The position numbers were made by a program, and so were the translations under genes. Positions 36,133-59,930 of a DNA stretch of 64,000 nucleotides are shown piece by piece; the first letter of the stretch is position 1, and every line of letters begins with the position of its first letter. The DNA is from a virus (Duplodnaviria; Heunggongvirae; Uroviricota; Caudoviricetes), in the IMG/VR virus record IMGVR_UViG_641736216_000007, one strand, 5' to 3'. The notes under the pieces are model-generated. The model saw only the letters and a program-made list of their open reading frames with translations, made no database searches and had not been told where the DNA came from.

Positions 36133-36428
36133 GAGGAATTTACCCCTCTTTCTGTTAGGCAAGAGTCTTTAACTCATATCTGTAACCATCACCTTTTTGT
36201 ATTAGTTTTAAATATCTATGATTAACAAATTGCAATCCTTGATAAAATTATTAAGGATTAATATCATATTACACTGTTTGTACCCATAAACTGGAGAAGC
36301 ATTTGTAGGTGTTGTAACCTTAATAATGTAGTTTAAAACTGAATCTGGTCAATACGACTTGGAGATAACTTCAAGCCTACCTCTTTAGAGGTGGGTTATT
36401 GACTTAGACATCCTCCCTTATCCTAATT
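36133..36428 (-). repeat. Copy B of the ~290-bp repeated element, inverted relative to copy A
   Basis: Reverse complement aligns with 8531..8818 at about 88-90% identity, with small indels. Ends 37 nt upstream of the start of 35472..36095. Confidence 0.55.
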
Positions 36429-54314: not shown

Positions 54315-56918
54315 TTAAACTTTATTTTCATTATTATTAGTTTCAGTATCATCATTTTTATTATTGTTATTTTCTTGGCTGTCCTCAGTGTTGTTACTTT
54401 CATTATCTGATTCATTGTTTAATTCATTATTTAAATCTTCATTTTTAATTGATGTATCTTTTTCTACATTCTCTTGGACATTATTTTTAATCTGATTCTT
54501 AATTTTTTCTTGATATTCTCTCTCTTTTTTCTCTTTTAAATATTCTTCTTCTCTTTTTTCCCTATTTAATTGTTCCTTAATTTCATTAAAATTATCATTT
54601 AAAAATCTATATTCTTCTATAAGCTCATCATATATAGATTTTCTTTTTACATTATTTATACTATTTTTTACTTTTAAAAGAATTTTATCTATTTCTTTTA
54701 CTTGTTTTAAATCAATTAATTTATATTCTCTTAAACTTTCTATATCATTTTTAGCTTTTATTTCTCTAATAGTCTCTTCTTCTTCACTTAAACCAAATAT
54801 AATTCTGTATTCTAATTCTTTTAATCTCTCTTTTTGAACTTCAGCTTCATTATTCTTTCTATTTTTTTCAAGATCTAATCTCTCTTTTTTAATTGCGAAT
54901 TCTTGAGGTCCTAATGTCTTTAACTTACCATTTTTACTATAAACCTGATCTGGCTTTTTAAAATCTACATCTTCTTTACCTTCATGAAGTCCACTCATAA
55001 ATTTATTCCATATATATTTAACTGAATTTGACTCTAATGAAGATTGGTATGAAGGAATGTCATCTCCTATCCATACAGACATGGTATAATAAGGAGTATA
55101 TCCACAAAACCAAGCATCTTTATTATCATTTGTTGTTCCTGTTTTACCAGCTTGGTATTTATAATTATTAAGCTTAGCTTTATGTGAAGTTCCATGTTCT
55201 TTTTCAATACTACCTTTCAAAACGTCTGTCATTAAATAAGATGCGCCTGAATCATATACCCTTTTTTTATTTTTATTATTTTTGTAGATAATTTCTCCAG
55301 TTGAAATTTTTTTAATTTCTTTTACATTTGTAGGTTCTATAAATTCTCCATTCCTTGCAATTGTTGAATATGCACTTGCCATTTCAGTTGTCGTCGCTCC
55401 TCTTGTTAACCCTCCTAAAGCTATAGTAGGCGTTCTGTCTGTTGAAGTTAGATATTTAAAATTCATTTTAGCTAAATATTTGAGAGATTTCTCAACTCCA
55501 TTTAGTTTAGTTAACCTAAATGGTATAGTATTTGTAGAAATCTCAGTAGCATATCTCAAGGTTATACGTCCTTTATATCCATTATACCAGTTAGAAGGAC
55601 CTTTATTAATTGGTCTATCTTCAAACTCGTCATCTGGAGAATATCCTTTTTCAAATGCAGGTAAATACGAAATCAAAGGCTTCATAGTTGATCCAGGTTG
55701 TCTTGCTCCTATAGAAGCTCTATTAAATGTGTTTGATTTGCCTTCTTGAGTCCTACCTCCAACTATTGCTATTACTTCTCCAGTGTTGTTATCAATAACA
55801 GTAGAAGCAGATTGTTTCATATACAAACTATTAGATTTATTTATTTTTTTATATTTAATCATTTCCTTATTTATAATAGACTGAAGCTTATTCTGTAAAT
55901 CGAAATTAATACAAGTATTAATTTTATATCCACCATTAAGTAGTTCTTCTCTGCATTTTTTATATTCTGAAGAGTATAGATTTGAGTATTTTTTTCTTTG
56001 CTCTTCATTGTCAAACATATATCTGAATTGAAAACCATTATTTTTCATAATTTCTTCAGTAGATTTTTGTATTGCATACTCAACAGCATAATCATTAATA
56101 TTATTATCATAATATTTTTTTTTGACATTTAACTCAAGTATTTCTTTTTTTGCATTTAATTGTTCTTTTTCTGTTATAAATTTAGATTCATACATTTTAT
56201 CAATTATATTATTTCTTCGTTTTATAGCATTTTCTTTATTTAACATTGGATCATATAAAGAAGGATTATTTGGAATCCCAGCTAATAAAGCTATTTGAGA
56301 TACATTTAAATCTTTTGTATTTTTTCCAAAATAATACATTGATGCTGTTTCTACCGAATAACACCCATGGCCAAAATTAATATTATTAACATAAAATTCT
56401 AATATATCACTTTTTGAAAATTTTTTTTCTATTTCTTGAGCTATTACTGCTTCCTCAAGTTTCCTCCATATATTTCTATCCATAGATAAGAATATGTTTT
56501 TTGCTAATTGCTGGGTTATTGTAGAACCTCCTTGAAGGCTACCACCTTTTAATATAACCACTCCTGCCCTAATTAAAGCCTTAAAATCAATGCCGTTATG
56601 TTCATAAAACCGTTTATCCTCTACTGCAATGAAAGCTTTAAAAACATATGGGTTTATATCTTTATATTTCTGATAATCATATTCTCTAACCTTAAACTCT
56701 TTCAGTAATTTACCATTATTATCATATATCTTTGTTGTTTCCCTGTTATTAAAAGAATTCCTATCCATACTTTCAGTTTTACTATAAGCTCTTTCTATAT
56801 AGTTACTAATGTCATTTTTTAAATAAAGGTATATGAAAATGGAAGCTATAAGAGATATAATTAAAAAAATAAAAATAGATATAATAATAATTTTTATTTT
56901 TTTATTTTTTTTACTCAA
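54315..56918 (-). CDS. Class A penicillin-binding protein (bifunctional transglycosylase/transpeptidase, PBP1A-like) with a long low-complexity C-terminal tail
   Basis: GT51 motifs (EDKRFYEHNGIDF; GGSTITQQLAKN). Transpeptidase motifs STMK (SxxK), SNT and KTGTT. N-terminal TM anchor. Confidence 0.9.
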   Translation of the reverse strand: MSKKNKKIKIIIISIFIFLIISLIASIFIYLYLKNDISNYIERAYSKTESMDRNSFNNRETTKIYDNNGKLLKEFKVREYDYQKYKDINPYVFKAFIAVEDKRFYEHNGIDFKALIRAGVVILKGGSLQGGSTITQQLAKNIFLSMDRNIWRKLEEAVIAQEIEKKFSKSDILEFYVNNINFGHGCYSVETASMYYFGKNTKDLNVSQIALLAGIPNNPSLYDPMLNKENAIKRRNNIIDKMYESKFITEKEQLNAKKEILELNVKKKYYDNNINDYAVEYAIQKSTEEIMKNNGFQFRYMFDNEEQRKKYSNLYSSEYKKCREELLNGGYKINTCINFDLQNKLQSIINKEMIKYKKINKSNSLYMKQSASTVIDNNTGEVIAIVGGRTQEGKSNTFNRASIGARQPGSTMKPLISYLPAFEKGYSPDDEFEDRPINKGPSNWYNGYKGRITLRYATEISTNTIPFRLTKLNGVEKSLKYLAKMNFKYLTSTDRTPTIALGGLTRGATTTEMASAYSTIARNGEFIEPTNVKEIKKISTGEIIYKNNKNKKRVYDSGASYLMTDVLKGSIEKEHGTSHKAKLNNYKYQAGKTGTTNDNKDAWFCGYTPYYTMSVWIGDDIPSYQSSLESNSVKYIWNKFMSGLHEGKEDVDFKKPDQVYSKNGKLKTLGPQEFAIKKERLDLEKNRKNNEAEVQKERLKELEYRIIFGLSEEEETIREIKAKNDIESLREYKLIDLKQVKEIDKILLKVKNSINNVKRKSIYDELIEEYRFLNDNFNEIKEQLNREKREEEYLKEKKEREYQEKIKNQIKNNVQENVEKDTSIKNEDLNNELNNESDNESNNTEDSQENNNNKNDDTETNNNENKV

Positions 56919-57335
56919 TATTCTCTACTCCTTTTTAAATAATATATTTTATATAATCAATATATTTTTATAATTAATATAACATATTTTAACAAAAATC
57001 TAAACATAAAAAAATATATAAAAAATACCTACAAAAGTAGGTATTCCTTTTTTAAGGATATCGCCTGGTTCCCCAGGCAATACGGTCCCCTATATAAACT
57101 TAGGGGATTACATATTTATTTACTAACTTCAATTTCATAGGTCTTATTAAAAATTCCATTTAGAAATACCTCCAGTTAATATTTTACACTTAGTAAAGCC
57201 CTTTATTAAGGCAGAAAATTAAATTTTTTAATTTCTTACAATATATTATGCATATTCATAAATCTCTATAATTTTATTACTTATATTTTTCTAAAAAAGA
57301 TACTGATAATAATTTAGTTATTATCAGTATCTTTT

Positions 57336-59930
57336 TTAGAAATTAATCAGATTGTTAATTATAGAGTTTACTACTATTTTATCTATTTTAGCGTGGCAAA
57401 TAGGGCATGTTTCAACTTCTAACAAAAGTTTTTTATATATTTCTATTTTATTTATTAGATATTCCTTTTTTTGCTCAATATTATGTTTCATTTCTTTTCC
57501 TTGATTGAATATTATATTTAATTCTTCTTTTTGTTTTTCAATTATTTTTATCTTCTCTTTTTGTTCTTTTAAATTACTTAACTTAAGCTCAATATCCTCA
57601 ATGTCATTTAATTTGTATCTAATTGAATTAAATTTATCTATTCTATTTTTTATATTTTTAAACTCTTCCTCTAATATATATATATCCTTTAACTTTTTAG
57701 ATTTTTCTTTTATTGTCTCATTTATACTTTTTAAATCTTCAATTTTATTAATTTGTTTTTCTATATCCAATAAAACATTATATTGTTTTTTTAAATATTT
57801 ATACTTTTTGTATATATTTGTTTTTTCACTTTCAATCTTTTTGTATTCATATAATTTTTTTTCTTCTAATCCTATTTTCTCATAAGAGTCTTTTAGGTTG
57901 GACATTAATAAAGGTGCTTTATCGATTTCTTTTAATTCCTCTACTTTTCCTCTTAATTCTGTTCCTAATTTTAACACTTTAGTAAGTTCAGCAGATTTTT
58001 CTTCAAGAATTTTTATTTTAAAGAACTTATTAGTTAACAGTTCAAACATATCTGTAATTTTTTCTTTATTTTCAGTTAGCTTTAACACTTTCTTTTCTAA
58101 TTCACTTATACTTCTTTCTTTTTCTATTAACTCAAGAGAAAATTTAGATAACTTCTCTATTAACTCTTTTTTTAATTTAATCTCATTTAAAATACTCTCT
58201 ACCTTATAAATATTTTCTTCTAATTTAAAAACATAATTATAGCTTTCTTTTCTTTCTTCTAATTCACTTACTTCTTTTTCAATCACATTTTTTTTCATAT
58301 TTATTTTTTTTATATTTGAAGTCATTTCTTTTACTACTACATCTCCATATTGCGTTCCATATAAACTCCCTACCAATTTTGCTTTATCTGTAGAAGACAT
58401 ATTTTTACCAACGAAGAACCAAGGATCACCTTGATTAATAAAATTTACATCAACACTACTTTTCTCAGATAATTTGACTTTGTTAAATCCTAAAATCTCT
58501 TGAACTGTTGTTATTGCTTTTGTATTAAAATATTCTATACAACCTTTGTTTGGATCAAATATTTCATATCCATTTTTCCCTTTTCTTTTATTCCCATTTT
58601 TATCTTCATTGTTTTCTACTATCCTACTAATTACAAACCCATTACTTAAATATAATGTTATTTTAAAAAAGTCCTCTCCACTTAAAATATGATTTCTTGG
58701 ATTTTTAATATAACAATCATACACTTCTCTTATTGCTCTAAGTACCGCTGATTTACCTTGACCACTTACTCCAGATACAACGTTTAACCCTTCCGAAAAT
58801 TCAAACACAGCATGTTTAAAACAAGCAAAATTAATAATTTCTAATTCAGTTATGGTGTATTTCCCTTTCGAAGAAAAAGGGACTTTCATAAGCTTTATAT
58901 TTTCTACAATATTATTAACAGCTTGATCTCTTATGCTATCATCTATATTTTTATTTTTTGCAATGTTTTTTACTATATCAACTATATCTATCCCTTTGGC
59001 TAACTCTGCTTTATTCATTAAGCTTTTTACATCTTCTATTTTTTCTAATTTTTTTTCTTTTTTAGCTATTTTCTCTCTTGATAAAACTTCACTTCCCTTT
59101 TTAGCACAGGATAAAAAAATTGGTTTTAAATTTATTCCATTTTTATCTACTTCTATTAAAATAACTTTTGGCATACGATTAATCTCTTTAAGCTCCGCTG
59201 ATAATCGAAATGGAGAACCTGGATTAATAAATTTCTTCCCATTAATATCAATTTCATCGTAGCCAGTATGATCATGTCCATTTATTGTCAAATCTGCTTT
59301 AGTGTGAGCTATTTGAGAAACAACCGTATGTTTAAATTTCTTACCATAACTTTTAGGCATTAAGTATCCATGTACAAGATGGATGTGAAAATCTCCCAAC
59401 TTTTTATTAACGATATAAGCAGATTTATCTTCTCCATCTATGTTATGAGTATAAGGAGCTCCGGTTATTGCTAAAGAAAAACCTTCTTTATCCTTAAAAA
59501 TAACTGGATTTTCTTTAGTTGCAATTGTTATAGCTCCACAACTAATTAAAACATTTAAAGATGTCTCTTCTAAAGAAGAGATTTCATTCCCTATTAATTC
59601 ATGGTTTCCTATTGTTCCAATAACAGGAATAGAACTTTTTAGATCTTGTTCTATTTCTCTAAAAGTTGTCTCCCCTGTTTTCATTTGCAGTATTTTATTA
59701 TTTAATTGAGAGAACTTAAAGTCTTTAGCTAAAGAGGCAAGTTCCTGTTCTGATAATCTATCTGAATTAAGGAAATCTCCCATTTCCAGAAAAGCATCTA
59801 TTTTATATTTATTTGCTATTTCCATTATTTCTTTCGTCTTTTTCTGTCTTGTATCTTTAAAATCATCGATTCTACTCCATGGAGTTTTACTTGAATAATG
59901 CCAATCTCCCAAAACTAAAAATCTTAACAT
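57336..59930 (-). CDS. Fusion of an Mre11/SbcD-type metallophosphoesterase nuclease with a Rad50/SbcC-like N-terminal ATPase lobe, coiled coil and C-terminal CxxC hook. No Rad50 C-terminal half.
   Basis: All five phosphoesterase motifs (GDWH, GDFLN, GNHE, HLVHGY, GHDH). P-loop GVSGQGKSA. Q-loop-like INQGD. About 330 aa of coiled coil. Ends CPICHAKIDK. Confidence 0.6.
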   Translation of the reverse strand: MLRFLVLGDWHYSSKTPWSRIDDFKDTRQKKTKEIMEIANKYKIDAFLEMGDFLNSDRLSEQELASLAKDFKFSQLNNKILQMKTGETTFREIEQDLKSSIPVIGTIGNHELIGNEISSLEETSLNVLISCGAITIATKENPVIFKDKEGFSLAITGAPYTHNIDGEDKSAYIVNKKLGDFHIHLVHGYLMPKSYGKKFKHTVVSQIAHTKADLTINGHDHTGYDEIDINGKKFINPGSPFRLSAELKEINRMPKVILIEVDKNGINLKPIFLSCAKKGSEVLSREKIAKKEKKLEKIEDVKSLMNKAELAKGIDIVDIVKNIAKNKNIDDSIRDQAVNNIVENIKLMKVPFSSKGKYTITELEIINFACFKHAVFEFSEGLNVVSGVSGQGKSAVLRAIREVYDCYIKNPRNHILSGEDFFKITLYLSNGFVISRIVENNEDKNGNKRKGKNGYEIFDPNKGCIEYFNTKAITTVQEILGFNKVKLSEKSSVDVNFINQGDPWFFVGKNMSSTDKAKLVGSLYGTQYGDVVVKEMTSNIKKINMKKNVIEKEVSELEERKESYNYVFKLEENIYKVESILNEIKLKKELIEKLSKFSLELIEKERSISELEKKVLKLTENKEKITDMFELLTNKFFKIKILEEKSAELTKVLKLGTELRGKVEELKEIDKAPLLMSNLKDSYEKIGLEEKKLYEYKKIESEKTNIYKKYKYLKKQYNVLLDIEKQINKIEDLKSINETIKEKSKKLKDIYILEEEFKNIKNRIDKFNSIRYKLNDIEDIELKLSNLKEQKEKIKIIEKQKEELNIIFNQGKEMKHNIEQKKEYLINKIEIYKKLLLEVETCPICHAKIDKIVVNSIINNLINF

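Follow-up and report, generated by a model that had tools for sequence, protein, structure and literature searches.

Can a protein that joins an Mre11 nuclease to only the first half of Rad50 be a working enzyme? The question is raised by a gene in a 64,000-nucleotide stretch of DNA, referred to here as the window, that is held as virus record IMGVR_UViG_641736216_000007 and matches the circular, 300,869-bp plasmid NC_017177.1 of Clostridioides difficile BI1 at 99.93-99.96% identity. The open reading frame (ORF) occupies positions 57336..59930 on the minus strand, begins with ATG, and encodes 864 amino acids (aa) plus a stop; its product is 100% identical to the plasmid protein WP_009899584.1, annotated as an 'AAA family ATPase'. 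Rad50 and SMC proteins are thought to need one fold-back polypeptide, in which the two ends make the ATPase head and the middle makes an antiparallel arm. A sequence-only reading of the window had offered several explanations for the half Rad50: a truncated remnant, a protein that completes its ATPase in trans, or a derived anti-phage or repair nuclease. Here, we trace the other ATPase lobe to a separate gene on the same plasmid, and we think it very likely that the 864-aa chain belongs to a three-polypeptide, SbcCD/Mre11-Rad50-type ATP-dependent nuclease that serves plasmid recombination and repair.

The gene encodes an Mre11-like nuclease and one lobe of a Rad50 ATPase

The gene and its parts, all on the minus strand, are as follows.

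57336..59930, minus strand: whole gene, Mre11-like nuclease, Rad50 N-lobe, helical arm and putative C-terminal zinc hook (ORF list, Pfam)
59091..59930, minus strand: Mre11/SbcD-type phosphoesterase and capping region, residues 1-280, motifs I-V (motifs, AlphaFold2 model, Foldseek)
58887..59075, minus strand: three linker helices, residues 286-348 (AlphaFold2 secondary structure, helices 286-307, 316-326 and 331-348)
58356..58859, minus strand: Rad50 ABC-ATPase N-terminal lobe, residues 358-525 (profile, NCBIfam, invariant residues)
57414..58355, minus strand: helical arm, residues 526-839, about five 54-residue repeats (AlphaFold2 model, family lengths, autocorrelation)
57339..57413, minus strand: zinc-hook-like CPIC (842-845) and short terminal helix (851-863) (conservation, profile)

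The sequence-only reading had placed every Mre11/SbcD phosphoesterase motif in the first ~280 residues, and all of them could be located: GDWH at 8-11, GDFLN at 51-55, GNHE at 108-111, HIHLVHG at 182-188 and GHDH at 218-221. In an alignment of 59 homologues (32-94% identity), the nuclease metal ligands D9, H11, D52, N109, H110, H184, H187, H219, D220 and H221 are invariant or at least 90% conserved. An AlphaFold2 single-chain model of the 864-aa protein, made from the same 59 homologues, has a mean predicted local distance difference test (pLDDT) score of 79.5 and shows residues 1-280 as an Mre11-like domain of high confidence, with pLDDT mostly >90 across the phosphoesterase and capping region. 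Each of the top 50 PDB structures matched by Foldseek is an Mre11/SbcD protein (E 1e-13 to 1e-10, ~290-320 aligned columns, target-normalized TM score 0.4-0.62). By sequence only, the best PDB matches of the nuclease domain are Vps29/YfcE-like, so the Mre11 assignment rests on fold and context. The linker helices at 286-348 appear to be placed like the Mre11 helix-loop-helix that binds the base of the Rad50 coiled coil, as in T. maritima Mre11-Rad50 (Yoshida, Claverie & Ogata, 2011; PMC3175470).

The remainder of the protein resembles the first half of Rad50. Pfam matches above threshold are Metallophos at 2-222 (E 1.8e-7) and AAA_23 at 363-633 (E 1e-7), and matches in NCBIfam and PADLOC involve only the first ~40-100 positions of the Rad50, RecN, SMC, PtuA and GajA models, or positions 1-491 of the 611 in an LmuB model; the NCBIfam Rad50 models match the N-lobe at their positions 3-95. 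The Walker A motif GVSGQGKSA, the Q-loop INQGD and the terminal CPICH that had been pointed out earlier were found at 387-395, 498-502 and 842-846, and G387, S389, G392 and K393 of the P-loop and Q500 of the Q-loop are invariant or nearly so; conservation of these and the nuclease residues goes far beyond chance. The family profile matches Rad50 N-lobes, namely M. jannaschii 5f3w_B (4-222), 3qku, and P. furiosus 1ii8_A and 1f2t_A. In the AlphaFold2 model, lobe I (360-525) is of high confidence and is followed by the helical arm (526-839), a turn at the CxxC and a last short helix (851-863). C842, P843 and C845 are invariant (CP[IV]C), the profile matches Rad50 hook structures at lower significance (6zff_A, E 3e-4; 1l8d_A, E 2e-3), and the hook family PF04423 is on record in Pfam for one relative, P0118. 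By its sequence, then, the CPxC is a putative zinc hook; it stands at the end of the chain and not in its middle, as the polypeptide stops 19 residues past it.

The second half of the ATPase is absent from the window, as the sequence-only reading had claimed for the gene and its neighbors. Pattern searches over the 864-aa protein found no signature or Walker B motif, neither a D-loop nor an H-loop is present after residue 525, and a hidden Markov model (HMM) of the C-terminal-half family matched no ORF in the window. We also considered a C-lobe in an adjacent gene and rejected it: the upstream 223-aa and 523-aa proteins have no Pfam match, and the RusA and HPF proteins are unrelated.

A separate plasmid protein carries the second ATPase lobe

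Reading the annotation of the whole BI1 plasmid, together with a Pfam scan of candidate ATPases, singled out WP_009899084.1, a 222-aa protein annotated as a 'chromosome segregation ATPase' (NC_017177.1 192257-192925), which we call Rad50C. Its gene lies outside the window, 82 kb from the N-half gene on the same plasmid. Rad50C matches positions 60-216 of the 220 in the SMC_N model and carries a signature-like DSGGL, a Walker B motif NVFDEP and an H-loop STHD; in alignments of 9 and 41 orthologues, its GG, DEP, S163, Q185 and TH are invariant. The best PDB matches of a Rad50C profile are Rad50 C-lobes (3aux, E 1.9e-13), the profile aligns over nearly its whole length with C fragments of P. furiosus Rad50 (3qkr_B, 1ii8_B), and the NCBIfam Rad50 models match it at their last ~90 positions. 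Its AlphaFold2 model (pLDDT 85.9) shows an 85-residue helix and then a lobe II fold, and by Foldseek this model is closest to C-terminal chains from SMC/Rad50/RecN head constructs built of two chains. By sequence and fold, WP_009899084.1 is a Rad50 C-lobe protein.

The motif sets of the two proteins are complementary: Walker A and the Q-loop are confined to the N-half, and the signature GG, the Walker B DEP and the H-loop TH to Rad50C. When an HMM was run over all six-frame ORFs of the plasmid, it found exactly one Rad50C homologue (E 3e-95) and none in the window. Other 'AAA family ATPase' proteins of the plasmid were rejected as partners on their Pfam domains: a PD-(D/E)XK-linked AAA protein, a MoxR-like AAA_5 protein, a RecD2-like helicase and a ParA/response-regulator protein.

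The halves occur together and are linked in most relatives

In a tblastn search of 72,556 plasmids, 14 records matched the N-half; 13 matched Rad50C, all of them among the 14 (hypergeometric P 6e-53). In the 14th record, Alkaliphilus pB6464, a divergent Rad50C was detected by HMM (E 2e-41). A co-directional cluster of the N-half, a ~90-aa protein and Rad50C, in this order, is found in P. polymyxa pSC2, Geobacillus pGspE55-1, C. baratii pCBJ, Aneurinibacillus, Bacillus sp. M6-12, two metagenome-assembled genomes (MAGs) of Peptoniphilaceae and Alkaliphilus. Phages 0305phi8-36 and phBC6A51 carry the cluster with extra genes interleaved, and a linear B. velezensis plasmid or element carries it in permuted order. 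Rad50C lies 5.7 kb downstream of the N-half gene in C. botulinum and 58 kb from it in B. thuringiensis Bt407; C. difficile has the most dispersed arrangement among the loci examined. A peptide-pattern scan of genome contigs, in which the patterns were narrow, returned 4 loci, too few for statistics.

The same system also occurs with the nuclease as a gene of its own. An unfused, four-gene version is present in a Peptoniphilus chromosome in the order cinA-recA-[Mre11|Rad50N|small|Rad50C]-miaB-mutS-mutL, and unfused four-gene versions are found in Bacillus phages as well. In the Peptoniphilus MAG (L017, 10001-13320), the four genes come directly after recA, and stop and start codons overlap by 4 nt at the Mre11|Rad50N and small|Rad50C junctions; these overlaps suggest that the four-gene system is translationally coupled.

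The proposal that the 864-aa protein completes its ATPase in trans is thus well supported, by a Rad50C on the same plasmid, by co-occurrence in 14 of 14 plasmids and by a shared operon in most relatives, and we consider it highly probable that Rad50C is the completing partner. The finding corrects the annotation of the ~215-aa proteins, now 'ParA', 'chromosome segregation ATPase' or 'hypothetical', and of the ~90-aa proteins, now 'hypothetical'. It also illustrates that viewing one window gene by gene can wrongly suggest a defective enzyme when a partner has moved elsewhere on the replicon.

The split form is a conserved family

If the gene were a decaying remnant, it would descend from a full-length Mre11-Rad50 fusion that had lost its 3' half. 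Full-length Mre11/Rad50 fusions do exist elsewhere (PMC3175470), and the window is without a C-lobe. However, the relatives share the shortened form. A search over 5.8 billion proteins returned 145 relatives; among the 120 listed, nearly all are 796-919 aa long and cover 97-100% of the query, with five fragments or partial matches covering 66-85%, and large contigs of Clostridium, Bacillus, Paenibacillus and kin are the main source of those listed. A HMMER search with residues 355-864 against 1.84 billion cluster representatives found 1332 relatives, 372 of them at E <= 1e-10. The best 150 of the 1332 are either fused proteins, with 776-960 aa, or unfused 'Rad50N' proteins, with 430-530 aa, and no unsplit, full-length Rad50 is among these 150. 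Apart from three long outliers (P0296, P0300 and P0314), their query-spanning alignments reach the end of the protein or nearly so. A CxxC motif lies within the last 45 residues in 246 of 255 family sequences, down to ~25% identity; these relatives have the same end point, right after CPxC. The catalytic residues are invariant.

The C. difficile gene also has expression signals at both ends.

59931..60015, minus strand: own expression signals (sequence and promoter scan)
57292..57338, minus strand: intrinsic-terminator-like hairpin beginning at the stop codon (folding against shuffles)

A strong Shine-Dalgarno sequence, GGGAGG, lies 8 nt 5' of the ATG, and the promoter scan found a promoter-like TTTATA-18-TATAAT, a consensus match only, upstream of the gene. 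The hairpin has a perfect 21-bp stem (dG -22.8 kcal/mol, z -9.66 against shuffles); a consensus terminator scan missed it through its G+C rule, and direct folding revealed it. The next gene downstream, which encodes a protein like penicillin-binding protein (PBP) 1A, starts only at 56918, and with the hairpin at the stop there is no room for a frameshifted continuation. We could rule out such a continuation, as 56919-57335 contains no ORF of at least 60 aa and no similarity to a C-lobe. Because a large family keeps the same architecture together with its catalytic residues and CPxC, and because the gene has its own Shine-Dalgarno sequence and a clean terminator at its stop, the suggestion of a truncated remnant is refuted, and we regard decay of a full-length fusion as extremely improbable.

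The arm and a small third protein

In the AlphaFold2 model, the confidence of the arm dips at ~620, 650-668, 720-727 and 771-780. Across the family the length of the arm is quantised: some members lack one unit of exactly 54 aa (700-753), and others have an extra one (at 732). A lag of 54 gives the strongest profile autocorrelation in the arm, level with the heptad, and the boundaries of the 54-aa repeats carry a capping-box-like motif, h-x-x-[IL]-[DE]-K-x-E, at the pLDDT dips. A fold-back of the arm into a hairpin is unsupported: the 54-aa indels lie off the predicted break (646-668) and are unpaired.

The third protein of the cluster is 77-107 aa long and is predicted to consist of a helix, a G-x-x-P-E turn and another helix; it has no specific Pfam family. 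Its gene stands directly 3' of the Rad50N gene in every non-C. difficile locus examined, with one extra ORF in phBC6A51. The C. difficile homologue, WP_009899104.1 (NC_017177.1 264106-264423), is the only one on the plasmid (E 6e-15), and its gene is ~10 kb from the N-half gene, just outside the window. In the three long outliers P0296, P0300 and P0314, the N-half continues past a cysteine-free apex segment into a C-terminal domain like the small protein; this domain is detected by hmmsearch in P0314 (E 8e-8) and P0296 (E 9e-5), and in P0300 the motif is seen by eye. These fusions behind the apex of the arm argue for a location of the small protein at the hook end, where it would form the beginning of a return arm. 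The same metagenomic sub-branch is without the CxxC and has in its place an apex segment of ~35 residues, Cys-free and strand-rich in appearance, which may be a zinc-independent hook.

A proposed three-polypeptide complex

We propose a model in which the 864-aa chain is the large subunit of a three-polypeptide Mre11-Rad50 (SbcCD-type) complex. From this chain would come the Mre11 nuclease, the Rad50 lobe with Walker A and Q-loop, the helical arm that leads away from the head and the putative zinc hook. The ~215-aa Rad50C would supply the other ATPase lobe, with signature, Walker B, D-loop and H-loop behind a helix of ~85 residues, and the small helix-turn-helix protein would associate with the hook end. 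Assembled, the parts should form a working ABC ATPase head whose ATP cycle would control the Mre11 active site, and, if so, the complex would bind and cut DNA ends, hairpins or blocked ends as SbcCD does.

The analysis establishes the domain content, conserved motifs, folds, co-occurrence, operon linkage and fusion links of the parts, and from these we infer their physical assembly and their ATPase and nuclease activities. Several observations weigh against this model. The three C. difficile genes lie scattered across 84 kb, with the N-half gene monocistronic, and co-expression in stoichiometric amounts is therefore not assured. PADLOC gives partial matches to LmuB, mad3 and mad8, which are taken up below. 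Lastly, the ~310-aa arm has no partner of equal length: Rad50C and the small protein together offer ~150 helical residues, and their lengths stay constant when the arm gains or loses a 54-aa unit. The possible partners are the N-terminal helix of Rad50C, of ~85 residues (2-86 in the AlphaFold2 model, with ~60 aa of estimated coiled coil), and ~75 residues of the small protein; as a descending helix, the chain itself has only ~13 residues past the hook. Because the helical residues available in trans fall so far short of the arm and the lengths are uncoupled, most of the arm cannot take part in the canonical antiparallel coiled coil of one folded-back chain.

The simplest reading of the arm would be homotypic pairing of two arms. 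We prefer a geometry in which the two run parallel, as this would bring two CxxC motifs together to share one Zn. Beyond this, and with less than even confidence, we raise the possibility, given the missing descending helix and an arm that varies by single 54-residue units, of a new architectural class of SMC/Rad50 proteins, with parallel Rad50N arms of an M2R2 assembly, one inter-chain zinc hook, a small-subunit clamp and detachable Rad50C heads. If this is true, the detachable lobe II could regulate the nuclease by subunit exchange, for example by hand-over to a HerA-like motor.

Could the 864-aa protein instead act by itself, with its half-ATPase as a non-catalytic module for ATP or DNA binding and dimerisation, and with Rad50C functionally the partner of HerA? 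The C. difficile N-half gene is isolated and has its own Shine-Dalgarno sequence and terminator, and Rad50C lies 8 nt upstream of a HerA-like gene, a pairing that recurs in four taxa. However, the loci of Geobacillus, C. baratii, Peptoniphilus and the phages lack a HerA gene and still have Rad50C directly linked to the N-half, and the invariance of Walker A and the Q-loop would make little sense without a catalytic lobe. In addition, lobe I of Rad50 by itself would leave exposed a hydrophobic face that lobe II normally covers (for example in 1F2U). A stand-alone role therefore seems to us very unlikely, and the three-polypeptide complex remains our preferred reading.

Genomic context favors repair over defence

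In megaplasmids, the most likely role of the proposed complex would be in recombination, repair and replication of the plasmid, together with a HerA-like translocase. In the B. cereus and C. botulinum megaplasmids, the gene is part of a syntenic backbone with topoisomerase, the coupling protein of a type IV secretion system (T4SS) and HPF. The phages that carry the system have it in early replication/recombination modules, and in PHROGs the two halves are phrog_16465, 'exonuclease', and phrog_15167, 'ATPase'. A HerA-like DUF87 ATPase gene comes directly after Rad50C in four taxa (C. difficile, P. polymyxa, Bacillus sp. M6-12 and Aneurinibacillus); the best NCBIfam match of this neighbor is HerA_Thermprot (E 2e-19), below the curated cut-off, and the link to HerA is found only in the megaplasmid clade.

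The sequence-only reading had also raised an anti-phage nuclease. In such a role the protein would be the SMC-like sensor and effector in a system like Lamassu, MADS or Wadjet, directed at the destruction of incoming DNA. PADLOC does match the protein to LmuB (PDLC03859, E 2e-12, residues 357-850), mad3, PtuA and GajA, and the HerA-like neighbor of Rad50C matches mad8 and anti-phage HerA models; the plasmid also carries a type I-B CRISPR system and a CBASS-like DncV/SAVED pair. However, the LmuB match extends only over positions 2-491 of the 611 in the profile, and the partial matches to LmuB, mad3 and mad8 reflect shared folds, in the case of LmuB that of SMC/Rad50. The best sequence and structure matches of all the parts are Mre11 and Rad50, and no LmuA- or LmuC-like genes are annotated beside the gene, where no model search for them was made. 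The chromosomal relatives lie between recA and mutS/mutL, phages themselves carry the system, and the plasmid gene sits in a syntenic backbone common to Bacillus, Clostridium and Clostridioides megaplasmids. Because of these recA-mutSL neighbors, phage recombination modules and backbone synteny, the context favors recombination, repair and replication over defence, and we consider a defence nuclease unlikely.

The locus that encodes Rad50C (NC_017177.1 191049-194753) has on one side a divergent gene for a YhaM-like OB+HD 3'-5' exonuclease and on the other, 8 nt downstream, the gene for the HerA-like DUF87 ATPase. In B. subtilis, yhaM presumably adjoins the SbcCD-like yhaO/yhaN.

Relation to known systems

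The proposed complex has much in common with Mre11-Rad50/SbcCD of E. coli, T. maritima, P. furiosus and M. jannaschii and with T4 gp46/gp47. The phosphoesterase folds like Mre11 and has every metal motif. The motifs of the head are divided between two lobes, with Walker A and the Q-loop in the first and the signature, Walker B and H-loop in the second, and a long arm terminates in a CxxC hook. It differs from them in that Rad50 is in pieces, with the second lobe separate and a third, ~90-aa helical protein in the operon; the descending arm is largely missing, 54-aa repeats make up the arm that is present and, in this clade, Mre11 is fused in front.

Fusions of Mre11 and Rad50 have been described in Mimivirus (R555), eukaryotes, a C. 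kluyveri plasmid, a Deferribacter megaplasmid and Bacillus phage 0305phi8-36 (gp8) (Yoshida, Claverie & Ogata, 2011; PMC3175470). As in those fusions, which are likewise found on plasmids and phages, Mre11 is N-terminal to Rad50 in a single ORF here. Most of them contain a complete Rad50; the phage protein gp8 was noted to lack "one NTPase segment", and the missing segment was not identified (PMC3175470). We find that gp8 has the same layout as the 864-aa protein (769 aa, ending in CPTC) and lies within the same gene set. The missing segment of gp8 is gp5, and gp7 is the small subunit. Unlike in the 2011 study, then, the absent part of Rad50 can be assigned to a gene of its own, which is gp5 in the phage and encodes WP_009899084.1 in C. 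difficile; this explains the 'missing NTPase segment' that had been left as a loose end. In the literature searched we found no description of a three-gene Rad50 split, and only the 2011 fusion paper proved relevant.

An active head made of separate lobe polypeptides has a precedent in the P. furiosus Rad50 N + C constructs used for crystallography (1F2T/1F2U, 1II8, 3QKR), whose C fragments rank among the nearest structural neighbors of Rad50C. Those are engineered truncations without arm or hook, whereas here the split is natural and conserved and retains the outgoing arm and the hook. The archaeal herA-mre11-rad50-nurA operon is similar in linking Mre11-Rad50-type genes to a hexameric ATPase of the HerA/FtsK family; it differs in that here the host is bacterial, Rad50 is split, and the HerA link is limited to the megaplasmid clade. 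No NurA is annotated on the plasmid or at the loci examined, where no NurA model search was made. Lamassu LmuB shares with the N-half an SMC/Rad50-class N-lobe and a helical arm; unlike in Lamassu, the profile match is partial, an Mre11 nuclease takes the place of LmuA-type effectors, and the context is one of repair/replication or plasmid backbone.

In this family, Rad50 has been cut at the hook and has lost the greater part of its return arm, and chromosomes, phages and megaplasmids all retain the pieces as individual, conserved genes. The family offers structural biology a natural way to ask which portions of the arm and hook ATP-controlled gating of the nuclease requires.

Genes around the locus and on the plasmid

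The neighbors of the gene encode the PBP, a CxxC protein, RusA and HPF, with RusA two genes upstream. Divergent from the gene, at 60215-61970 on the plus strand, are genes for a 223-aa protein that has two CxxC pairs and is without a Pfam match, a RusA-family Holliday-junction resolvase and a long-form HPF, a ribosome hibernation factor. The adjacency of HPF, the T4SS coupling protein and the Mre11-Rad50N gene recurs in the B. cereus and C. botulinum megaplasmids. On the downstream side, a 418-bp spacer separates the gene from the PBP gene. Rfam finds nothing in this intergenic spacer 3' of the gene; 2-3 more terminator-like hairpins lie at 57020-57110 (both strands), with 0.5 expected. The PBP1A-like ORF itself (54315-56918, minus strand) is intact, 867 aa long, with transglycosylase and transpeptidase domains and a long acidic, Asn-rich tail, and is annotated as two coding sequences in NC_017177.1. 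The window and NC_017177.1 differ almost entirely by single-base indels (26 of 28 differences), so the split in one record suggests homopolymer errors in one assembly.

The 301-kb element NC_017177.1 encodes dozens of DUF4116 proteins, the type I-B CRISPR-Cas system and CBASS-like DncV/SAVED pair mentioned above, DnaE, primase, LigA, NrdJ, ClpX, FtsH, ParM, T4SS and Tad-like genes, and a 2669-aa Ig-like surface protein; MOB-suite types it as non-mobilizable. Elsewhere in the window, at 36227-36403 on the minus strand, is a HEARO RNA (RF02033) that matches the full-length Rfam model at gathering level with 85.2 bits. HEARO is an RNA associated with RNA-guided nucleases of the IscB/HNH type, and IscB fragments and TnpB genes are annotated elsewhere on the BI1 plasmid.

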